Below are positions 1-10,453 of a stretch of DNA of 64,000 bases, piece after piece. The position numbers were made by a program, and so were the translations under genes. The notes under the pieces were generated by a model, which was given only the letters and a program-made list of their open reading frames with translations, was not told the origin of the DNA and did not search any database. Source of the stretch: Thermodesulfobacteriota bacterium (GTDB lineage: Bacteria > Desulfobacterota > Desulfarculia > JACQYL01); NCBI GenBank assembly GCA_963675595.2, contig CAXXLZ010000002.1, forward strand, positions 2,368,001 to 2,432,000. The letters run 5' to 3'. Each line of letters opens with the position of its first letter. Position 1 is the first letter of the stretch.

Positions 1-273
1 CAGATGCTCCGCACGCGACGTCGCTTCCGCCATCATCCTTTCCCGTTCTTTGTTTGCCTCCCGCTTTGCGTCCTCAAGCTGCCCATTAAACTCGACGAGA
101 AGGCGCTCTCCCTTATCGGCAAATTCGGATGCATCCTTCCGCGCCTGATCGATCCTTTCCTTCCGCTCCCTCACTGTTTCCAGCACCGGCCGAAACAGGA
201 GCCGGTTCAGGATGAACATGAGCAGAAGGAAGTTGATCAACTGCAGCGCCAGGGTGGCGTTTATGCTGATCAC
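1..273 (-). CDS. atpF: ATP synthase F0 subunit b/b' (5' part; runs off window edge)
   Basis: Hand translation from GTG at 273 gives MISINATLALQLINFLLLMFILNRLLFRPVLETVRERKERIDQARKDA..., a single TM helix plus charged coiled coil typical of b/b'. Follows atpE. Absent from the ORF track. Confidence 0.9.
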   Translation of the reverse strand, partial: MISINATLALQLINFLLLMFILNRLLFRPVLETVRERKERIDQARKDASEFADKGERLLVEFNGQLEDAKREANKERERMMAEATSRAEHL

Positions 274-306
274 CTTTCAGACTCCGTATCTTTTGGGTTT
301 CGCTTT

Positions 307-561
307 CTAGACCACAAAAATCAGAAGCAACGCTACGACCAGGGAGTAAATACCCGTGGATTCCGAAACAGCCTGCCCGACGAGCATCGTTCTGGTCAGC
401 AAACCGGCTTCCTGGGGATTTCTGCCGATGGCCTCACAAGCCTTACCCGCGGCAAAACCTTCACCCACGCCGGGTCCAATGGCGCCGAGTCCCATCGCGA
501 TACCCGCCCCCAACAGAGCCGCCGCCCGTACGATGTCCGCTCCTTCGATTCCTACTGCCAT
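307..561 (-). CDS. atpE: ATP synthase F0 subunit c (single hairpin, Na+-binding signature)
   Basis: 84 aa; GxGxG inner helix GPGVGEG, RNP loop, outer helix ESTGIY. Confidence 0.97.
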   Translation of the reverse strand: MAVGIEGADIVRAAALLGAGIAMGLGAIGPGVGEGFAAGKACEAIGRNPQEAGLLTRTMLVGQAVSESTGIYSLVVALLLIFVV

Positions 562-655
562 TTGATCATCCTCCGTAATGTTTATTTTGATCGCCTCTAT
601 TCGTTCAATTCTTTGTATGTGCCGACGGATGCAACGCCCTTCAAGCCCGCCACAT

Positions 656-1630
656 TTAGACCACGAAAATCAGGACGAGAGCTATCACCATTGCGTAAAT
701 CGCGGTGGATTGGGCCACCGCCTGACCCACCAGCATGGTTCGAGTCAACACACCGGTGGCTTCCGAACTTCGACTGACCCAGGTTACGGCTCCCTCGGCG
801 GTCATCCCGTTCCCGATCCCGGGTCCGATACCTCCGAATCCCATGCAAAGCCCTGCGGACAGGAGAGCGAAGGACGCGGTGAGCGTGGAAGACTCGGGGA
901 ACGTCTTGAACATCAGAATGAAGCTCACCAACAGACCGAAAATAGCCGGAGTTTGGGCCACGGCCTGTCCCACAAGCATGGCCGTTGTCGTGGCTCCCAG
1001 AGTGAGAGGTTGCCTGGCGATTCCCTGCGTGCTGGCTCCGGCCGCCATTCCGCCTCCGACGCCGGACCCGATGGCCGCCAACCCCGTGGAGAACCCCGCG
1101 CCCAGCAGCGCCGCCCAGGTAGGAGAGACGGGGGCTTTGCTGAAGTCCAGGAACATGAGCATAAAGGCCACCACCATGGAAAAAATGGCGGGCGTCTGGC
1201 AGACCGCGGAGCCGATGAGCATGTTGGTTGTGAGGGAGCCCGCCATTTTGGGCTGCCGCGCCAATCCTTCGCATGCACCGGCGGCGGGAAATCCCGAACC
1301 TACGCCCGAACCGATGGCTCCGAACCCCATGCACGCCCCCGCGCCGATGAGCGCCGCGGATTTGGCCGTCGTCTCACCGATATGATGATCCAGAAAGATC
1401 AGCAAAACAGCGATCACCAGTGCGAAAATACCCGCGGACTCGGCCACGGCCTGGCCGACCAACATGTTTCGCACAACATCGCTCGATGCTTGGGGACGTC
1501 TGGCGCTGGCGCGCGATGCAAAACCCGCACAGAATCCTTCCCCTACCGCAGCGCCGATGGCTCCGAGCCCGATGGCGATCCCGGCGCCGAGATACGCCGA
1601 ACCCATAACATAAATATGTGCCGTCTCCAC
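656..1630 (-). CDS. atpE: Fused four-hairpin ATP synthase subunit c (8 TM), one carboxylate site
   Basis: 324 aa with four c-subunit repeats; loops RRP/RQP/RQP/RSS; outer helices ESAGIF, QTPAIF, QTPAIF, QSTAIY; GTG start after purine-rich RBS. Confidence 0.93.
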   Translation of the reverse strand: METAHIYVMGSAYLGAGIAIGLGAIGAAVGEGFCAGFASRASARRPQASSDVVRNMLVGQAVAESAGIFALVIAVLLIFLDHHIGETTAKSAALIGAGACMGFGAIGSGVGSGFPAAGACEGLARQPKMAGSLTTNMLIGSAVCQTPAIFSMVVAFMLMFLDFSKAPVSPTWAALLGAGFSTGLAAIGSGVGGGMAAGASTQGIARQPLTLGATTTAMLVGQAVAQTPAIFGLLVSFILMFKTFPESSTLTASFALLSAGLCMGFGGIGPGIGNGMTAEGAVTWVSRSSEATGVLTRTMLVGQAVAQSTAIYAMVIALVLIFVV

Positions 1631-1648
1631 TTGGGCTATATCTCCCTT

Positions 1649-2323
1649 CTACTTAATCTGAACCGAAATATACACAAGGGTCAGCATGGTGAAAACAAAA
1701 GCCTGGATGGTTCCGACAAACAGTCCGAAAAACGCGAACAGGAAAGGCGGAATCACCAATTGCCAGACGAGGTGGGATACGACCAGAATGATGATGGACC
1801 CGCCCATGATGTTTCCATACAGACGGAAGGAGATGGAAACGACCTTGGCGATCTCACCAATCACGTTCAAAGGAGCCATGAAGAACATCGGCTGGCAATA
1901 CTCGGAGAGATACTGCTTCAAGCCTTTGGCCTTGATTCCGGAATAATGGGCGATGATAAACCCCAGCAGCCCCATGCTGAGAGGCGTATTCAAATCTTTG
2001 GTGGGCTCCGAAAGAAAAGGAATGATCCCGATCCAGTTACACAAGAGCAGAAACATGAAAAGCGCGCAAATCAAGGGAAAGTATTTTCGATAGTCCTTGA
2101 TTTCCAATGCGTCGCGAGTCAAGTCGTCGAAGGTCACGATAAAGAGCTCGGCGACATTCTGCAAACCTCCGGGAACATGGGCCAACTTTCGCGATGCGAG
2201 CACCGCGAACAAAATCAATACCCCCATGACGATCCACGTCATGATCAGGGTTTCTACGTTGAACACCAAATTGTAGTCCCCGAGCGTGAGCGTGTACTGC
2301 CAGACATTGGTTAATTCATCCAT
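1649..2323 (-). CDS. atpB: ATP synthase F0 subunit a
   Basis: PGGLQN, PTKDLN and SISFRLYGNI (essential Arg) motifs. Confidence 0.97.
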   Translation of the reverse strand: MDELTNVWQYTLTLGDYNLVFNVETLIMTWIVMGVLILFAVLASRKLAHVPGGLQNVAELFIVTFDDLTRDALEIKDYRKYFPLICALFMFLLLCNWIGIIPFLSEPTKDLNTPLSMGLLGFIIAHYSGIKAKGLKQYLSEYCQPMFFMAPLNVIGEIAKVVSISFRLYGNIMGGSIIILVVSHLVWQLVIPPFLFAFFGLFVGTIQAFVFTMLTLVYISVQIK

Positions 2324-2347
2324 TGTGCCTTCCCTGCCTTGTGGTCG

Positions 2348-2770
2348 TCAATATGTGATTCCCCTCCGAAAAAAATGAGCCCATCCAACATAATACAGCA
2401 GGATCGAAATCTGTGCATTGAAGACGCCGACACATGTGGCCACGATGCTGATCTGATCCGATCTGACGGCTATGATTAAAGGGAATGCCAGAAGAACGTA
2501 TCGGAGCAAAATGGAGAAAAAGGCTTCCACCCCCGCGCGTTTCGAACTCATACCCAACCGTCGAACGATCCCGCGTTTCATCAACGCGAAATTGGCCAGG
2601 CTGAAAACGCTCCCCAACACAAATCCTTTGGCCTCGCCGAAACGGGACATGGCAAGACATCCGAGCACCACCACCGCGCAGAGCACGGCTGCGGTTTTTG
2701 CCACGTTCACCACCGGGTCGTCCGCCCGAGGCTCATTCTCCGTTTTTCCGGTCTCGCTCGGTACCTTCAT
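2348..2770 (-). CDS. atpI: ATP synthase protein I (membrane)
   Basis: Four-TM protein (GFVLGSVFSLANF, LLRYVLL) immediately upstream of atpB; start reassigned to ATG at 2770. Confidence 0.8.
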   Translation of the reverse strand: MKVPSETGKTENEPRADDPVVNVAKTAAVLCAVVVLGCLAMSRFGEAKGFVLGSVFSLANFALMKRGIVRRLGMSSKRAGVEAFFSILLRYVLLAFPLIIAVRSDQISIVATCVGVFNAQISILLYYVGWAHFFRRGITY

Positions 2771-2984
2771 CGAGAACCTCTCTGATCTGGCGATACACCG
2801 TGTAGGCCCCTCCGATGACACCAAGAATCAGAAAAACGGTAGTGAAGAGCCCTTTTACCCCGAGCCACTTGTCTAGATAGTAACCGATGGCAAAGCAAAA
2901 GAGCACACAACCGACCATGGTGAGACCCAACTGGGTAACCAGTGTGAGGTTCTCCATCATGGCCTTCCGATCCTGTTTTTTCAT
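2733..2984 (-). CDS. AtpZ/AtpI family (ATPase gene 1) protein
   Basis: QLGLTMVGCVLFCFAIGYYLDKWLG...GG motif typical of AtpZ/AtpI; first gene of atp operon; start reassigned to ATG at 2984. Confidence 0.85.
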   Translation of the reverse strand: MKKQDRKAMMENLTLVTQLGLTMVGCVLFCFAIGYYLDKWLGVKGLFTTVFLILGVIGGAYTVYRQIREVLDEGTERDRKNGE

Positions 2985-3025
2985 AGAGCACGCGAATCGC
3001 TTGTGATTATTTTCTCGCAGTCGGG

Positions 3026-3055
3026 ACACTAATGCCTTTTGGATGCTTTTGTCAA
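3026..3055 (-). promoter_or_regulatory. Putative sigma70 promoter of atp operon
   Basis: Minus strand TTGACA-18 nt-TAGTGT about 40 nt upstream of the atpZ start. Confidence 0.5.
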
Positions 3056-3489
3056 GAGAAAACCTTGACGCCCATCGTGCCCAAATCAAAACATTCGGTA
3101 TCTTAAGACAATCTGCAAAGATCCGGAGCACACGGCTGTTTTCTCACGCGGCAGCCCCCTACCCCCGCCGGGACGACCGTCGGCCGCAACCGGCGATCAT
3201 GCAGCATAGCGCTCTATTATCGATTGTGCAAGCGGCTCAACAATGCATCAAAAAAAAGCTCCGGGAGCCGGGCCCTCGTCTCCAGGGGAGGAACGGACCC
3301 TCTCTGATTCGGCACGGCCCTACCCCCCTCCGGCCCCAAGAGGAAACCCCTTTCCATCTGCGGTTCAAGTATGCCATAGTTGTGAATCAAAGTACGAGCG
3401 GACCCGATGAACGAAGCCGCCTACCGCGAATCACCCACGAATCGGGATATCCCGTTCATTGGTCCCCGTCGGCGTTTTGGAGACTAGAC

Positions 3490-4650
3490 ATGCCTCAGCC
3501 CATAGATCAAGAAGAACTTTCGGTTCTTCTCGTCGATGATGAAGATGAATTCCGACAGCCTTTATTCAAACGCCTTTCCAGGCGGGGATTCCATGTCCGG
3601 GAGGCTTGCAACGGACGTGAAGCGCTGCTGGCTCTTGAAAAAGAACCCGCCGGCGTGGTGGTCATGGACGTCATGATGCCCGTTCTGGATGGAATAGAGG
3701 CTCTCAAAAGAATCAAACAGGAATTCCACGAAACCGAGGTCATCCTTCTCACCGGCTTTTCCAATACCGATCAGGGCGTATCCGGAATCAAAGCCGGAGC
3801 CTTTGACTATCTGTCCAAGCCCATTGAATTCGAACACCTCTTGGGCAAGATACGTCAAGCCGGCGACAAGCTGCTCCGACAAGAGGAAAAACGACGCGAA
3901 CTCGAGTTCCGCTCGCGAATGGAGCAGCAAATGATCGCAGCGGAACGTTTGGCCGCAGTGGGTACCATGGCCGCCGGAATCGCCCACGAAATCAACAACC
4001 CTCTCTCCATCATCGCGGAATCGGCCGGATGGATGAACACCCTTCTGGCCAAACCCGAGTTGGCCTCCATCCCTCACCGGGACGGATTAAAACTCGCTCT
4101 GGACAAGATCGAAAAGAGCGTCTCCCGCACCCGCACCATTACGCACCAACTACTGGGTTTCGTGCGCAAGGACGATTCCGTCGTTAAGGAAAGCAGCCTG
4201 TCCGAGCTCATTCAGGAAGTCATCGACCTCATGGGGACTCATGCCGGGGATTTAGGGGTGGTTCTCGAAAAAGACGTCGATACCCGGGCGGATACGATCT
4301 GGACCGATCCGTCGCAACTTCGCCAAGTGTTGGTGAATCTGGTATCCAACGCCATACAGGCGTCCTCGCGCGACGGTAAGGTGCTCATCCGTCTGGAGGA
4401 CGCACCCGAAGAGATCATCCTGTCGGTGAAGGATCAGGGCGAGGGCATTCCCAAAGAGAACTTGTGTCGAATCTTCGAACCGTTCTTCACCACCAAACCC
4501 CCGGGGAAAGGCACGGGGTTGGGACTTTCCATCAGTCGAAGTCTGGTGGAGAAGCTCGGAGGTAAGATCGACGTGGAGAGTCAACTCGGAAAAGGAAGCA
4601 CCTTCTCGGTGCGGCTTCCCAAGTTGAACCCCGTCGCAGACCGCTCATGA
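3490..4650 (+). CDS. Hybrid receiver-histidine kinase (REC-HisKA-HATPase)
   Basis: LLVDDE...DVMMP...KP receiver; AHEINNPL H-box; NLVSNA, DQGEGI, FEPFFTTK, GTGLGL boxes; likely start ATG 3490. Confidence 0.93.
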   Translation: MPQPIDQEELSVLLVDDEDEFRQPLFKRLSRRGFHVREACNGREALLALEKEPAGVVVMDVMMPVLDGIEALKRIKQEFHETEVILLTGFSNTDQGVSGIKAGAFDYLSKPIEFEHLLGKIRQAGDKLLRQEEKRRELEFRSRMEQQMIAAERLAAVGTMAAGIAHEINNPLSIIAESAGWMNTLLAKPELASIPHRDGLKLALDKIEKSVSRTRTITHQLLGFVRKDDSVVKESSLSELIQEVIDLMGTHAGDLGVVLEKDVDTRADTIWTDPSQLRQVLVNLVSNAIQASSRDGKVLIRLEDAPEEIILSVKDQGEGIPKENLCRIFEPFFTTKPPGKGTGLGLSISRSLVEKLGGKIDVESQLGKGSTFSVRLPKLNPVADRS

Positions 4651-4702: not shown

Positions 4703-6085
4703 CTACTTTCGGATCACGGCCTCCAAGGAGATATTGTATTTCTTCATCCTATTCCACACCGTCATGCGGTGAACTCCAAGAATTTCGGCCGCCTTGGTCT
4801 TGCTTCCGCCGCTTAGACGCAACGCCTCGATGAGAGCCCTTCGCTCATCCCCGGACTCCGCATCGCCCGCGACGGAACCCTCCTTGACTTCCGGCTCCCC
4901 ACCGGCCTGCTGCATCGCCGGCAGGTGCTCAAGTTGTATGGAACCGGACTCCGCCACCACAAAAGCGTATTCGAGAGCGCTCCTCAGTTCCCTGACGTTC
5001 CCCGGCCAATTATAATCCATGAAGAATCTCATCACTTCGGGACTCGTCCCATTAATCCGCTTCTGATTACGTCTGCGCAGGTCCGCGGTGAAATGTCCCA
5101 CCAACAAGGGAATATCGTCTTTCCGCTCCCGCAAAGGGGGTAAATGAATGGGAATCACGTTGATACGGAAGAAAAGGTCTTCCCGAAACCGGCCTTCCGA
5201 TACCAACCGGGAAAGATTCCGGTTGGTCGCCGAAATGACCCGAACATCCACGTTCACCGGAGCGTGGTCTCCCACGCGTTCAAAACGCTTGGTCTCCAGC
5301 ACCCGCAACAGTTTGACCTGAGTGGCGGAGGGAATATCTCCGATTTCATCCAGGAAGATATCTCCCCCGTGCGCAGCTTCGAATCGCCCCACCCGGTGAC
5401 GATAGGCTCCGGTGAACGCCCCCTTCACGTGACCGAACAATTCGCTTTCCAGGAGAGACTCGTTCAAGGCCGCACAGTTGAATTGGATGAAGGGCCCTTC
5501 CTTCCTCCGCCCAAGGCTGTGAATCGCATGGGCCACCAGCTCCTTGCCCGTTCCGCTCTCACCATAGATCACCACCGGAGCGTCGCTTTGACCGGCTTTT
5601 TCGATGATCTGAAAAATCTTGCGCATGGCCCTACTCTTGCCCACCATGCCTTGAAAACCCGTGGCCGGTACTAGTAGACGCGAAAGTTCCTGAATCTTCT
5701 GATCGCGCCGATCCATTTCCGACAAGTCGATGAAGGTTTCCAGCGCGCCGATCACCTCGCCGTTTTCGTCCTGCAGCAGGCAGGCGTTTTTCAACGCGGC
5801 CACGAGACTTCCGTTCTTCTTCCCGAGCAAACACCGCTTGTCCTTCACGCCTCCCATCTCGAACAAGGCACACCAGTTCTTTCCGCCTTCGGAGCGGGTC
5901 AGATCGCAGGCGTCGCACTTCAGCACCGTGCAGGGAGCCCCCAACAACTCCTCTTTGGTAAATCCCGTCATCCTTTCGAAGGCCGTGTTCACCACAAGGA
6001 TTCTCCCTTCCGGCCCCACTACCATCAAACCGTCGCTCACCGCATTCAGAATGGTCTTCCAATGAACTCCGAAATCATTTGTCAT
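4703..6085 (-). CDS. sigma54-dependent transcriptional activator, Cys-rich PAS-AAA+-Fis HTH
   Basis: PAS N-terminus, GESGTGKE, GAFTGA, WPGNVREL, C-terminal HTH. Confidence 0.95.
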   Translation of the reverse strand: MTNDFGVHWKTILNAVSDGLMVVGPEGRILVVNTAFERMTGFTKEELLGAPCTVLKCDACDLTRSEGGKNWCALFEMGGVKDKRCLLGKKNGSLVAALKNACLLQDENGEVIGALETFIDLSEMDRRDQKIQELSRLLVPATGFQGMVGKSRAMRKIFQIIEKAGQSDAPVVIYGESGTGKELVAHAIHSLGRRKEGPFIQFNCAALNESLLESELFGHVKGAFTGAYRHRVGRFEAAHGGDIFLDEIGDIPSATQVKLLRVLETKRFERVGDHAPVNVDVRVISATNRNLSRLVSEGRFREDLFFRINVIPIHLPPLRERKDDIPLLVGHFTADLRRRNQKRINGTSPEVMRFFMDYNWPGNVRELRSALEYAFVVAESGSIQLEHLPAMQQAGGEPEVKEGSVAGDAESGDERRALIEALRLSGGSKTKAAEILGVHRMTVWNRMKKYNISLEAVIRK

Positions 6086-6722: not shown

Positions 6723-6790
6723 GCTCCGTTACCGCTTTTCAATGAAACCATCGGAAGTTCAACCATTCCATGAACCTGAGGAAGACGACC

Positions 6791-8980
6791 ATGGGGACGA
6801 ATCAACCGCTCACACTTTCCCGCAGAAACTTCCTTAAAGTCGCGGGCGCCGCGGCTGCGGCCGGTACCGGGTTGATTCGGCCGAATTCAGCGAATTCGGC
6901 GACGCCCGAGGCGCCGAGTTTCGAGAGCAAATACTCGGTGTGCGACATGTGTTTCAACAAATGCAGTCTCATCGCCCGAGTGCGAAACGGGGTCGTGGAG
7001 AAGCTCGACCCCAACCCCAAATTCCACAAGTCCCGAGGGATGCTCTGCGCCCGCGGCAACGCCGGAGTCAGGCAGCTCTACGATCCGGACCGCCTGAAAT
7101 CTCCCCTTCTCCGAAAGGGAGAACGGGGCGAGGGAAAGTGGCAAAGGCTCACCTGGGACCAGGCTCTCGACCATGCCGCGGAACAGCTGCTCAAGATCGG
7201 TGAACAATACACGCGTTGCGGAGTCATGTTCATGGCCGGCGCGGACATGCAGTCCACTTTTGTCCATCGGTTCGCGGACGTCTACGGTTCGTACAATAAG
7301 CTGTCACATGAGTCCATGTGCCTGATCGCCGGAACACGGGGTTTTTTGGACACCTTCGGTGAAGTGCCCATTCCCGACATGCAGTACACGAAATACGTGG
7401 TCATGTCCGGAGCGAACCGCTTCGAAGCTTTGGTCACTCCCGACAGCATGGACCTTATGAAAGCCATGGCCGGCGGCTGCAAGCTGGTGGTGCTGGACCC
7501 CCGTTATACCAAAACGGCGGCCCTGGCCCATGAATACTTCCCCGTACGTCCCGGCACGGATATGGCCGTCATGCTGGCTTTTGCTCACGTGCTGATCACT
7601 GAGGGCCTGTACGATCGGGAATTCGTGGAACAGAAATGCTACGGCATCGAACAACTCGCCGAACACGTCAAGCAGTACTCCCCCGAATGGGCCGAGAAGG
7701 AATGCGAAATCCCGGCAGAGGCCATTCGCCGTATTGCCCGGGAAATGGCGGCCGCGGCTCCGCAAGCCATGATCTATCCCGGCCGTCGCAGCTCGAATTA
7801 CCGCAATTCCACTCAAATCCGACGGGCCTACGCCATTGTCAACGCGCTCCTGGGCAACTGGGATCGCCCCGGAGGTCTTACGGCGGCGAGGATGGTGGGG
7901 CTGAAGAGCCCCGGCTACGACGCACCGTTCTATGAATCCAATCCCTTCGAGCGCATCGACCACGGCGTGGCCAAATTGATGTTCGAGGAAGAAGGGTCTT
8001 TAAAAATCGCCCGCGACGCCGTGCTCCGAGAGGAGCCCTATCCGGTCAAGGGTTTCTTCACCTACAAGACCAACCCTATGCAAACGGCCGCCAACCGTTC
8101 CAAGACCATTGAAATGATCCGTAAACTGGATTTCATGTGCACGGTGGATATCGTCATGAGCGATACGGCGTGGATGGCGGACCTGGTGCTGCCGAGTCAG
8201 GCCGCTTTCGAACGCACGGACCCCTGTTCCGCCCAACAAGGTTCCTCGGCCTGCGCCTGTGTGGTCATGCGCGACCCGGTGGTGTCCGACCCCCTGTTTG
8301 AGTCCAAGCCGGTGTTCTGGATGATGAAGGAACTGGCCGACAGGCTGGACCTGGGCGAATATTTCGATCTTTCCATCGAAGAATACCGGAAAGAACAACT
8401 GCGGGACCTGCCCGGAGCCATGGACGCCTTGATCAACGACGGCGTTTACTATAACCCGAGCAAGCTCTACGGTGTTTACGAAGGCAGGATATTCAAAACC
8501 AAGACCCACAAGATCGAGCTGTTCAACGAAACCTATCAGCAAATGGGCTTGGACCCCCTGCCGGTGTACGAATCTCCGACCGCCCCACCGAAGAACCAAT
8601 TCCGCATGGTTGTCGGCAGAACGGCGACCATCACCCAAAGCAGCAGCCAGAACAACAGCCTGCTCCAGGAATTCGAGCCCGAAAACGATCTCTGGATTCA
8701 CCCCGACTCCGCCGCCGCCCTGGGCATTCACGACGGGGACCCTGTAACCGTTTCCGGCAAGGTCGGCGAGCAACGCATCCGTGCGCGCGTCACCCGACGC
8801 ACACGTCCGGATACGGTCTACATGCACACGGGCTACGGCGTGTTGAGCAAAGGCTTGAGCCGGTTGCAGGGTAAGGGCGCCTGCATCGCCCAAGTGCTCG
8901 AAGACGGTCTCGACGAGATCTCCGGCAACATGGCCATGCACGAGACCTTTGTGAAGATAACCAAGGAAAAGAAATCATGA
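6791..8980 (+). CDS. Molybdopterin oxidoreductase catalytic subunit, polysulfide/thiosulfate reductase (PsrA/PhsA) family
   Basis: Tat motif SRRNFLK; CDMCFNKC...C 4Fe-4S; HESMC Mo-ligand Cys; C-terminal molybdopterin-dinucleotide domain; B and C subunits downstream. Confidence 0.9.
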   Translation: MGTNQPLTLSRRNFLKVAGAAAAAGTGLIRPNSANSATPEAPSFESKYSVCDMCFNKCSLIARVRNGVVEKLDPNPKFHKSRGMLCARGNAGVRQLYDPDRLKSPLLRKGERGEGKWQRLTWDQALDHAAEQLLKIGEQYTRCGVMFMAGADMQSTFVHRFADVYGSYNKLSHESMCLIAGTRGFLDTFGEVPIPDMQYTKYVVMSGANRFEALVTPDSMDLMKAMAGGCKLVVLDPRYTKTAALAHEYFPVRPGTDMAVMLAFAHVLITEGLYDREFVEQKCYGIEQLAEHVKQYSPEWAEKECEIPAEAIRRIAREMAAAAPQAMIYPGRRSSNYRNSTQIRRAYAIVNALLGNWDRPGGLTAARMVGLKSPGYDAPFYESNPFERIDHGVAKLMFEEEGSLKIARDAVLREEPYPVKGFFTYKTNPMQTAANRSKTIEMIRKLDFMCTVDIVMSDTAWMADLVLPSQAAFERTDPCSAQQGSSACACVVMRDPVVSDPLFESKPVFWMMKELADRLDLGEYFDLSIEEYRKEQLRDLPGAMDALINDGVYYNPSKLYGVYEGRIFKTKTHKIELFNETYQQMGLDPLPVYESPTAPPKNQFRMVVGRTATITQSSSQNNSLLQEFEPENDLWIHPDSAAALGIHDGDPVTVSGKVGEQRIRARVTRRTRPDTVYMHTGYGVLSKGLSRLQGKGACIAQVLEDGLDEISGNMAMHETFVKITKEKKS

Positions 8981-9726
8981 AGACGCAGCTGGCAATGGTA
9001 ATCGACGCATCCAGGTGCTGGGACTGCAAAGCCTGCATGGCCGCCTGCAAAACGGCCAACAAGGTCCCCGAAGGGCAGTGGCGGAACTGGATCAAGAGCG
9101 TGGACCTGGACCTGGTGGAGCCCGGAGGAGGGCGGCTGATCTTCCAGCCGGGCAACTGCATGCACTGCAGCGAGCCTCTTTGTATCAAGGCTTGCCCCAC
9201 GGGCGCCACCTATCGAAACGAAGCCGACGGCACCGTCCTCATCAATCGGGAACTTTGCATCGGCTGCGGGCAGTGCCTGCCGGCCTGCCCTTACGGCGCA
9301 AGATTCAGACACGCGGAACTCAGGGTCGCGGACAAATGCGACTTCTGCGCCGAACGCAGGGCCGCCGGCCTGGAGCCCGCCTGCGTAGCCACCTGCCCAA
9401 CCAAGGCGCGTGCCTTTGGAAATCTTGCAGATCCGGAGAGCGAAGTCGCCCGCCTGCTCAAACGGAATGAGTCCGTGCAACTGGTTCAGGCCAAAAGCCC
9501 GACCGACCCCAACATTCGTTATCTCGGAAATCCCGGACGGACCGATTGGCCCGTGGAGGCGCAAATGCCCTCGGCATTCGGGTTCTGGAAGAACGTGGCG
9601 GGCCCGGTGGTCAAGATCTTCGTCGGATTTTCCGCTTTGGGCTTCGGCGCCATGCTGGCCAAGCAACTTTTCCTCCCCGATCATCCCGAGGAAGACCGCC
9701 AACCTGAGGAGAAACGCCATGAATAA
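8977..9726 (+). CDS. 4x[4Fe-4S] electron-transfer subunit (PsrB/PhsB-like) with C-terminal TM anchor
   Basis: CWDCKAC, CMHCSEPLC..CP, CIGCGQC..CP, KCDFC..C..CP; ATGA overlap with subunit A. Confidence 0.93.
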   Translation: MKTQLAMVIDASRCWDCKACMAACKTANKVPEGQWRNWIKSVDLDLVEPGGGRLIFQPGNCMHCSEPLCIKACPTGATYRNEADGTVLINRELCIGCGQCLPACPYGARFRHAELRVADKCDFCAERRAAGLEPACVATCPTKARAFGNLADPESEVARLLKRNESVQLVQAKSPTDPNIRYLGNPGRTDWPVEAQMPSAFGFWKNVAGPVVKIFVGFSALGFGAMLAKQLFLPDHPEEDRQPEEKRHE

Positions 9727-10453
9727 CCGAATGATCCGACGTCACGGACCGGGGGGCATTTTCATCCACTGGTTCAACGCGGTTTGCTGGTTTTTCCTCC
9801 TGGCCACCGGTCTGGGTCTCATCAAGAACCCGGACCTTCAGCCCTTGGGCCCATGGTGGCCCAACTTCATGAACTCTTTGTTCGGCGGCGGGGAAACTCT
9901 TTTGGCCGTCCATTGGGGCACCGGCGCGGTCTGGGCTGGCATCTGGCTGATCTTCATCCTGGCGGGTCTGCTTCGATACACGGCCCCGTTTCTACGACAA
10001 ATCTTCTCCTACCACCTTTCCAGGGACCTGGAGTGGATGATCAAGAAGCCCTTTCAAATGATCCTGGGAACCAAAGCCATGGCCGCCCTGGTTCGCCCTT
10101 TGGGTTGGGATGGAAACATGCCCGAACAGGGATTCTACAACGTCGGGCAGAAAGCGGCCGCGGTCGCCATGGCGGCCGGAGGCCTTGTCCTTGTGATCAC
10201 AGGCGTCATCATGACCCTATCCAAGTACTTCCTTTCCCCGAATCAGGTCCCCATGGTTCAGTGGAGCATCACCATCCACTTCATCGCGGCCGGCCTCACT
10301 TTCGGAGTGCTTCTGATCCACATCTATATGGCGGCGGTAAGCCGTGAGGAAAGGCCTGCGTTCATTTCCATGTTTACCGGGACGGTTCCGGAAGATTACG
10401 CGGCCCACCACCACGGTCTTTGGTACGAAGAAGTCAAAAACAGCGGTAAGTAA
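9719..10453 (+). CDS. Cytochrome b membrane anchor (PhsC/FdnI-like)
   Basis: RRH..IHWFNA, YNVGQK, IHF/IHIY heme-b His, SMFTGTV..YAAHHH; start ATG 9719. Confidence 0.9.
   Translation: MNNRMIRRHGPGGIFIHWFNAVCWFFLLATGLGLIKNPDLQPLGPWWPNFMNSLFGGGETLLAVHWGTGAVWAGIWLIFILAGLLRYTAPFLRQIFSYHLSRDLEWMIKKPFQMILGTKAMAALVRPLGWDGNMPEQGFYNVGQKAAAVAMAAGGLVLVITGVIMTLSKYFLSPNQVPMVQWSITIHFIAAGLTFGVLLIHIYMAAVSREERPAFISMFTGTVPEDYAAHHHGLWYEEVKNSGK

Follow-up and report, generated by a model that had tools for sequence, protein, structure and literature searches.

To our knowledge, the only characterised bacterial F-type rotor ring with a dead site, that is, a c-subunit hairpin without its ion-binding carboxylate, is that of Acetobacterium woodii, where one of eleven hairpins is dead. 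Here we describe atpE1, a gene for a c subunit of four fused hairpins, three of which are dead and consecutive. It belongs to an Fo operon located at the beginning of a 64,000-nucleotide stretch of DNA (the window) from a Thermodesulfobacteriota bacterium (NCBI GenBank assembly GCA_963675595.2, contig CAXXLZ010000002.1, positions 2,368,001 to 2,432,000 of the forward strand). The A. woodii ring is described as a 9:1 mixture, with nine c2/3 subunits and one c1 (PMC9171764; 4BEM chains). Its genes form one complete operon, atpIBE1E2E3FHAGDC (PMC7911925). As at the window locus, the multi-hairpin c1 gene of A. woodii (PDB 4BEM) and of Clostridium aceticum directly precedes a gene for a c subunit with a Na+ motif, within an F-type operon. 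In the ring of Fusobacterium nucleatum, Na+ is bound by Glu32 and Glu65 of one subunit and by Ser66 and the carbonyl group of Val63 of its neighbour; Tyr70 and Thr67 make up the rest of the hydrogen-bond network (PMC3692424).

The window operon contains two adjacent c genes:

Window 656..1630, minus strand: atpE1, a four-hairpin (8-helix) F-type c subunit of 324 residues, identified from its open reading frame, four PF00137 stretches, the ligand residues listed below and an AlphaFold2 model.
Window 307..561, minus strand: atpE2, a single-hairpin c subunit of 84 residues (PF00137, E=1.8e-18).

The atpE1 frame starts with GTG and has an in-frame ATG at codon 9. PF00137 (ATP-synt_C) matches the protein in four stretches (E=2.8e-53, 178.4 bits for a cut-off of 24). 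The four hairpins show 38-51% identity among themselves and 46-56% identity to AtpE2. Hairpin 1 is live, with E31 and E64. In hairpins 2 to 4, the carboxylate position is occupied by Q145, Q226 and Q307. The carboxylate of the C-terminal helix, looked for in every hairpin, is therefore found in hairpin 1 only (E64). Hairpin 4 retains S308-T309-Y312. The hairpin loops read RRP, RQP, RQP and RSS; that of hairpin 4 deviates from the R-x-P type of polar loop, and relatives have RN.. at this place. Judged by homology, AtpE1 is a member of PF00137 in which three of the four units have no functional residue. The AlphaFold2 model, calculated from a 78-row alignment, has a mean predicted local distance difference test score (pLDDT) of 97.0 and a predicted template-modelling score (pTM) of 0.93. 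It shows helical hairpins connected by short linkers.

The hairpins were aligned to AtpE2 and read at positions 32/63/64/65/66/67/70 (Ilyobacter numbering):

AtpE1 hairpin 1: E V A E S A F
AtpE1 hairpin 2: S V C Q T P F
AtpE1 hairpin 3: G V A Q T P F
AtpE1 hairpin 4: N V A Q S T Y
AtpE2: E V S E S T Y

AtpE2 carries the full two-carboxylate Na+-type motif, E34...V65-S-E67-S68-T69-x-x-Y72 in its own numbering. Its residue set is identical to that of the two-carboxylate F. nucleatum site (PMC3692424). This motif suggests that a ring containing AtpE1 and AtpE2 would be coupled to Na+. A previous sequence-only reading of the window, whose coordinates 307-1630 cover both c genes, had described four fused hairpins, glutamates in hairpin 1 alone (GEG and ESAGIF) with Gln in hairpins 2-4, QSTAIY in hairpin 4, and a hairpin 1 devoid of T and Y. 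The four PF00137 stretches, the alignment to AtpE2 and the ligand residues agree with this description on each point.

Among solved structures, A. woodii c1 is the best match to AtpE1 both by sequence (4bem_J, E=1.4e-24 over residues 8-161) and by fold (Foldseek E=6.9e-07, template-modelling (TM) score 0.81 on the target and 0.46 on the query). In the fold search, no solved chain covers more than half of the AtpE1 model (query-normalised TM at most 0.46). In the alignment, hairpin 1 of c1 reads Q..E-T-S..F and hairpin 2 reads Q..Q-T-T..Y. The ligand logic is the same in the two proteins: the first hairpin is live with Phe in place of Tyr70, and a later Gln hairpin keeps T-T-Y in c1 (PMC7911925). 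The sequence-only reading had pointed to this F/V hybrid ring with its two-hairpin c1 as a parallel, and the comparison bears it out. The two proteins differ in size, however. A. woodii c1 has two hairpins (about 18 kDa) and one dead site, whereas the four hairpins of AtpE1 include three dead ones in succession, and up to five dead sites occur in relatives. Moreover, position 32 is Glu in AtpE1, which gives two carboxylates, and Gln in c1. At the sequence level, AtpE1 is the A. woodii c1 design plus two inserted ion-blind hairpins.

AtpE1 belongs to a large family. A word-indexed protein search gave 2314 proteins of 178-567 residues at E<=0.001 among 8000 scored candidates. The best 120 of these were analysed together with the query, the window protein being thus counted twice among the 121 proteins. 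Four hairpins are found in 10 of them, five in 86 and six in 25. One protein, P0005 (434 residues, six hairpin matches), is off the family pattern, with a truncated, dead first hairpin and a live hairpin in third position; it may be a mis-called or rearranged gene. An exhaustive search of 50%-identity representatives returned 1670 matches at E<=0.001, which include two- and three-hairpin forms as well as unrelated many-hairpin proteins of archaeal type. Pattern searches of species-representative genomes matched 592 stretches, 512 of which were confirmed by tblastn, and the best 80 loci were kept. The four-repeat homologs of about 320 residues that the sequence-only reading had proposed to search for are thus numerous: the gene has four hairpins in 77 of these best 80 loci, and five in the other 3. 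Named carriers are Desulfosarcina variabilis, Desulfatibacillum alkenivorans DSM 16219, Desulfocarbo indianensis and the Olavius symbionts Delta 1 and Delta 4. When the phylum was sampled evenly, a match at E<=1e-40 was found in 38 of 401 genomes and in 30 of 255 genera.

Conservation was measured over 78 sequences. Mean column identity is 0.79-0.81 in hairpins 2 and 3, 0.78-0.79 in hairpins 1 and 4, and 0.46-0.59 in the linkers. Because the dead hairpins are conserved as strongly as the live ones, they are, by this measure, under purifying selection. Residues Q145, T146 and P147 of AtpE1 are each retained in 77 of the 78 sequences. AtpE1 is a conserved four-hairpin gene, with a pattern far beyond chance. 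A FastTree of the individual hairpins (82 columns; support values not inspected) groups them by position across 3- to 6-hairpin forms; the data are weak, and the tree serves for broad positional grouping only. In this tree, C-terminal hairpins adjoin the clade of monomeric c subunits, and the extra hairpins of five- and six-hairpin forms fall within the middle types.

The distribution of ligand residues was then read in 201 close relatives, namely the 121 proteins (including the window protein twice) and the 80 genomic loci. These sequences are kin and not independent; Fisher values mean little here, and the regularities described below span several architectures. Glu65 is present in the first hairpin of 200 of the 201 relatives. 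Tyr70 is present in the last hairpin of all of them, within Q-S-T-Y (158), E-S-T-Y (42) or Q-A-K-Y (1). In internal hairpins, Tyr70 is found in 40 of 44 cases if the next hairpin is live, but in 1 of 698 if the next one is dead. Among the 80 loci, 58 are of the window type, live-dead-dead-dead; 18 are live-dead-dead-live, one is live-dead-live-dead and three have five hairpins. Hairpin 3 of the live-dead-dead-live loci carries Q-T-T-Y and not Q-T-P-F, and in the single live-dead-live-dead locus the Tyr is again on the hairpin that precedes the live one. Across the four-hairpin family, hairpin 3 changes from P/F (57-58 of 78) to T/Y (19 of 78) exactly as hairpin 4 changes from N/Q to E/E (19 of 78). 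Natural fusions follow the same order, with a live E-S-T-Y hairpin fused after Q-S-T-Y in 42 of the 201 proteins. The live-dead-dead-live sister type (L047:7995-8969, L067 and 16 more loci) is present in Desulfosarcina variabilis and Desulfatibacillum alkenivorans.

These counts support the view that, as in solved rings, the site of a given hairpin (i+1) is completed by residues 66/67/70 of the one before it (i). According to this neighbour rule, the hairpin that follows AtpE1 in the ring would have to be live. Because residues 66/67/70 complete the site of the following hairpin, the ligands retained by AtpE1 would be those that face neighbouring subunits. This had been proposed by the sequence-only reading, which had also stated that a ligand pattern not conserved in homologs would speak against it; the pattern is conserved in the 201 relatives, and it holds for forms of 3 to 6 hairpins.

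The same data bear on whether AtpE1 is a rotor part at all. Three of its four hairpins are without the essential carboxylate, and the search of sequencing runs described below retrieved no RNA run; AtpE1 could thus be seen as a tandem duplicate in decay, or as a protein for assembly or regulation that stays outside the ring. We consider this highly improbable. The frame is intact, and homologs are spread over the genomes and genera of the phylum sample given above. The dead hairpins are conserved like the live ones, with substitutions that are specific and invariant (Q-T-P-F), and neighbouring hairpins covary. In addition, hairpins are orthologous by position across 3- to 6-hairpin forms, and the structure model is confident.

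A single-hairpin c gene is adjacent to the multi-hairpin gene in 78 of the 80 loci, in the order atpB-atpE1-atpE2-atpF'. Of the two loci without a following c gene, one is cut by a contig end 324 bases past the gene and the other is a solitary extra copy. This solitary four-hairpin c gene (L015:7983-8960) has no a gene or single-hairpin c gene beside it, and the same metagenome-assembled genome has a full operon elsewhere (L046). The motif E..ESTY is invariant in all 79 single-hairpin c genes of the 78 loci. Mean column identity is 90% in the AtpE2 family versus 73% in the AtpE1 family. The start signals of the two genes also differ. atpE2 has a GGAGGA Shine-Dalgarno sequence, an A/U-rich leader and an ATG start (window 562-655). 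atpE1 has a GTG start, 10-11 nucleotides after AAGGGAG (window 1631-1648). As a weak inference, these signals would fit AtpE2 being made in excess of AtpE1.

The multimer model that the sequence-only reading had suggested was calculated for AtpE1 with two copies of AtpE2. The interaction prediction score from aligned errors (ipSAE) is 0.76, versus 0.00 for the best control; the mark used for this score is reached by 58 of 80 solved complexes and by 2 of 110 mismatched pairs. At least 97% of contacts recur between runs, and the partners have a pLDDT of 83 or more. On the hairpin 1 side, residues 65-72 of one AtpE2 are placed against residues 60 and 64 of AtpE1. On the hairpin 4 side, residues 63 and 67 of the other AtpE2 are placed against residues 305-313 of AtpE1. 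The predicted contacts agree with the neighbour rule.

AtpE1 might also form rings with itself. For instance, three copies would give 12 hairpins, 3 sites and 1 Na+ per ATP, in threefold match to F1, and AtpE2 would then be separate or a filler. The ligand logic would be satisfied if hairpin 4 of one copy served hairpin 1 of the next, and two to three copies of the 4-, 5- or 6-hairpin forms would give a plausible 10-15 hairpins. The solitary extra gene of AtpE1 type, found without neighbouring a or c gene, also fits with this arrangement. We nevertheless regard an AtpE1-only ring as unlikely. For thermodynamic reasons, one ion per ATP is not sufficient to drive ATP synthesis at physiological gradients. 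The atpE2 gene accompanies the multi-hairpin gene in nearly all loci, and its product is the more conserved of the two. It also has the stronger ribosome-binding site and an ATG start, a weak hint as to amounts. Finally, the solved A. woodii ring is a mixture (PMC9171764).

The c genes are part of an operon transcribed from the minus strand in the order atpZ, atpI, atpB, atpE1, atpE2, atpF', then atpF. The Fo set that it encodes is hereafter called the hybrid Fo. Besides the two c genes, the window contains:

Window 2733..3131, minus strand: atpZ, ATPase_gene1 family (PF09527, E=5e-17).
Window 2348..2824, minus strand: atpI, assembly factor with an uncertain start codon (PF03899, E=3.6e-09).
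Window 1649..2323, minus strand: atpB, Fo a subunit of 224 residues (PF00119, E=1.4e-54).
Window 1..273, minus strand: 5' part of atpF', b' stator subunit, which runs past the window start (PF00430).

The full atpF' and atpF genes were located in the genome (L008 11845-12273 and 11270-11848). The operon stops after atpF; the next gene, on the opposite strand, encodes a universal stress protein (Usp). The essential Arg of AtpB, R167 (SISFRLYGN), is at least 95% conserved in 78 aligned orthologues. Among the 80 related loci, atpI was found in 76 and atpZ in 75. No F1 gene was found within 8 kb of the related loci in any of the 80 cases. The operon has AtpZ and AtpI but neither AtpR nor F1 genes, and does not match the order of an N-ATPase operon. 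It does not belong with V/A-type proteolipids either, the neighbours being an F-type a subunit (PF00119) and b/b' subunits (PF00430), and the nearest sequences being F-type.

In the host genome (6.79 Mb, 98% complete), three loci include c genes, and the a and gamma genes number 3 and 2, respectively. The rotary ATPase genes are arranged as follows:

G000:C2:1917328-1923675 (L010 7304-14098): N-ATPase operon, atpD-C-Q-R-B-E-F-A-G.
F1 operon with stator: atpF'-F-H-A-G-D-C.
Plain Fo locus: atpZ-I-B-E, with a c subunit of the type Q..M-V-E-S-L..Y and no b genes.
Window operon: a, E1, E2, b', b (with atpZ and atpI), no F1 genes.

The c subunit of the N-ATPase, whose operon includes AtpR, is also of the two-carboxylate type (E..V-E-S-T..Y). 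Because this set adds to the plain and hybrid Fo, the genome encodes three different a/c-ring sets. The a, b' and b subunits of the window operon show only 35.6%, 28% and 29% identity to their canonical counterparts in the genome; because identity is so low, the hybrid Fo represents an old separate lineage and not a recent copy. This organisation differs from that of A. woodii, where Fo and F1 genes form one operon; here, the Fo operon is devoid of F1 genes and a second, plain Fo is present in the genome.

Gene counts show the same trend in related, non-independent genomes. All five relatives with long assemblies have one a gene more than gamma genes. In 37 genomes of the phylum with a multi-hairpin c, the number of a genes minus that of gamma genes is +1 in 31, +2 in 1 and 0 in 5; in the +2 genome, gamma was not found. 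In 40 genomes of the phylum without multi-hairpin c, the difference is +1 in 1, 0 in 37 and -1 in 2, and the +1 genome is 66% complete with gamma not found. Because carriers nearly always have one a gene more than gamma, two Fo motors would share one F1. The hybrid Fo genes directly adjoin delta-alpha-gamma-beta-epsilon in four lineages that are more distant. Of these, G021 has the plain atpZ-I-B-E as the ectopic set, without b genes. In another one (G386, 95% complete), the order is delta-alpha-gamma-beta-epsilon-atpZ-I-a-c4-c1-b'-b (L095, G386:C2:44001-60000), with Met at position 32 of hairpin 1. Apart from the hybrid one and the N-type one, G386 yielded no F-type Fo. Hence, the hybrid Fo appears to be regularly paired with the canonical F1, and two Fo motors appear to be kept per F1 in most carriers.

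A hybrid Fo operon (atpZ-I-B-E1-E2-F'-F) without F1 genes, together with a surplus a gene in carriers, is a new finding of this analysis; the sequence-only reading had not noticed the missing F1 genes. A related case has been reported in Desulfococcus oleovorans, where a complete second Fo set is located away from F1, with a and c subunits that group apart from those of the host (Koumandou and Kossida 2014, PMC4154653). It was taken as a species-specific duplication or a possible transfer. Multi-hairpin c, dead sites and F1 sharing go unmentioned in the part of this account that was available. Judged from its description, with the genome itself unexamined, the ectopic Fo of D. oleovorans is probably the same kind of locus as the window operon. 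Two to four atpE copies have also been reported in Desulfatiglandales genomes (PMC13343851).

Starting from the observed anatomy, conservation, neighbour rule and gene counts, we infer that AtpE1 co-assembles with AtpE2, that the ring is coupled to Na+, that F1 is shared and that the ion/ATP ratio is lowered. The arrangement that we find probable is one in which AtpE1 takes four adjacent positions in a mixed, Na+-coupled F-type ring made mainly of AtpE2, as part of a second Fo that docks on the single canonical F1. Hairpin 1 would give E31 and E64 to one full site, closed by the S/T/Y residues of the preceding subunit. Hairpin 4, ion-blind itself, would lend S308, T309 and Y312 to the next subunit's site. 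Interfaces 1/2, 2/3 and 3/4 of AtpE1 would be permanently neutral, with Gln for Glu and T-P-F for S-T-Y. Each AtpE1 copy would thereby take away three ions per turn, so that k copies in a ring of N hairpins would leave N-3k ions. As an example, arithmetic on an assumed ring size (N=11, k=1) gives 8 ions per turn, that is, 2.7 per ATP versus 3.7. Because the hybrid Fo (a, E1, E2, b' and b, with the AtpZ and AtpI factors) has no F1 genes of its own, it would have to dock onto the canonical F1 of the cell. The cell could then assemble two kinds of F1Fo enzyme that differ in coupling sites and gear ratio.

The neutral Gln hairpins could face lipid and the Arg of the a subunit alike, and would give no ratchet step. 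The rotor would have to be carried over about three hairpin widths, either by F1 during hydrolysis or by stored elastic energy and fluctuation during synthesis. The single-chain c10 ring of Bacillus PS3 shows that covalently fused F-type hairpins can work as a rotor (PMC8809890). In this ring, one Glu-to-Gln hairpin abolished ATP synthesis (PMC8809890, citing Mitome 2004). Because one such hairpin stops synthesis in PS3, the invariant Gln-Thr-Pro-Phe set of the AtpE1 family looks like a specific adaptation. The PS3 variant is engineered and has one Gln hairpin, whereas AtpE1 is natural and has three, with co-adapted neighbouring residues.

The PS3 result also raises the question of the direction in which the enzyme works. 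The hybrid Fo may be part of a dedicated ATP-driven Na+ exporter, with a V-ATPase-like high gear, that never acts as a synthase and in which F1 pushes the dead arc through. Carboxylate loss in a duplicated c subunit is the classical route from synthase to pump (PMC9171764), and this analogy with V-ATPases favours the pump direction together with the arrest of PS3 by a single dead hairpin (PMC8809890). The separate plain Fo (atpZ-I-B-E) of the genome could in turn serve synthesis. Several points make an exclusive pump doubtful. G386 was found to have no other F-type Fo than the hybrid one and the N-type one, and four lineages have the hybrid Fo genes in one operon with their only canonical F1. 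The N-ATPase is the usual candidate for a Na+ pump, and the genome studied here already has one. Finally, enzymes with V-type c subunits do make ATP, as in A. woodii and with the enzyme described in PMC9171764 at 90-150 mV. This synthesis by V-type-c enzymes and the gene content of G386 favour a synthase. We lean slightly towards a hybrid enzyme competent for ATP synthesis.

Several observations weigh against the mixed Na+-coupled ring docked on a shared F1. The ligand pattern fits an AtpE1-only ring equally well. The score of the complex model may stem from likeness to, or memory of, the solved A. woodii ring, and the calculation, with custom alignments and two partner copies, is outside the calibration of the tool. 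Ion specificity is read from the motif only. The stators of the two Fo sets are only 28-29% identical, and binding to the same delta subunit and F1 is not self-evident. Five of the 37 carriers have no surplus a gene, although 3 of these 5 have fragmentary gamma matches, and the a/gamma counts come from genomes that are related to each other. By analogy with PS3, three Gln hairpins in a row might not turn under load. Finally, a search of sequencing runs with window 280-3000 retrieved no RNA run; six matching entries of unstated kind, all in the form of contigs, came from three studies.

Fused hairpins with fewer ion-binding residues, and hence fewer ions per turn, are also found in V/A-type proteolipids such as Enterococcus hirae NtpK and eukaryotic c/c'' (PMC9171764). 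Archaeal c subunits with 2, 3 or 13 hairpins are likewise fused, with fewer sites (bioRxiv 10.64898/2026.10.01.756066). The V/A-type proteolipid fold matches the AtpE1 model with a TM score of about 0.8 over two hairpins. However, V/A-type enzymes have another a subunit and other stalks, whereas the atpE1 operon encodes a PF00119 a subunit and a b/b' stator. In V/A-type rings, dead hairpins alternate with live ones, whereas AtpE1 would form an arc of three dead hairpins. In the accessible text of the preprint on rotary ATPase evolution cited above, A. woodii is the sole F-type case named. Our literature search, whose coverage did not extend to Brandt and Muller 2015, Matthies 2014 or supplements, gave no description of an F-type c subunit with at least three hairpins.

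In membrane bioenergetics, the basic exchange rate is the ion/ATP ratio, which is fixed by how many ion sites there are per turn. A natural and widespread family whose members have three to five consecutive dead sites offers a direct test case for the crossing of ion-blind arcs, and bears on the lower limit of the ion/ATP ratio in energy-limited anaerobes. Tentatively, many Desulfobacterota could run a two-gear synthase, in which one F1 works either with a plain c-ring or with a Na+-type hybrid ring bearing an evolved ion-blind arc of 3-5 hairpins. If so, the four-hairpin stride would correspond to one 120-degree step of F1 in a 12-hairpin ring and, at the extreme, three AtpE1 copies would form a ring whose symmetry matches that of F1, with one Na+ per ATP. 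The co-adapted Gln-Thr-Pro hairpins would then show how a rotor passes uncharged positions under load, which a single engineered Glu-to-Gln hairpin is unable to do. Two membrane motors per catalytic head would be a modular switch of coupling ion or gear. These ideas can be addressed at the bench, since some carriers are in culture and are non-pathogenic (Desulfatibacillum alkenivorans, Desulfosarcina variabilis, Desulfocarbo indianensis). Two Rnf/Nqr-type D subunits are encoded in the genome studied here, which makes a Na+ or H+ circuit fed by Rnf/Nqr-type complexes plausible.

AtpB of the hybrid Fo shows two replacements at conserved places. Its Asn153 and Gly175, each conserved to at least 95% over 78 orthologues, correspond to two Glu residues in the genome's canonical a subunit. 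A conserved Glu (E157) is located four residues on from N153. This Asn/Gly swap may mean a different ion path.

At the upstream end of the operon, the true start of atpZ is likely the in-frame ATG at 2984. A TTGACA-type promoter-like element, spotted by eye only, lies near 3054. The genes upstream of the operon were assigned from their translation only. A receiver-histidine kinase hybrid is encoded on the plus strand (window 3043-4650) and a PAS/sigma-54 activator on the minus strand (window 4703-6085). The activator was considered as a driver of the operon and rejected: the sigma-54 promoter pattern TGGCAC-N5-TTGCW, searched for with at most 2 mismatches, occurs 17 times against an expectation of 24, and never upstream of atpZ. 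Only 6 of the 80 related loci have a homolog of the activator near the operon; for the kinase, the number is 28. Further on, a molybdopterin oxidoreductase cluster with 4Fe-4S and membrane subunits occupies window 6770-10453 on the plus strand.

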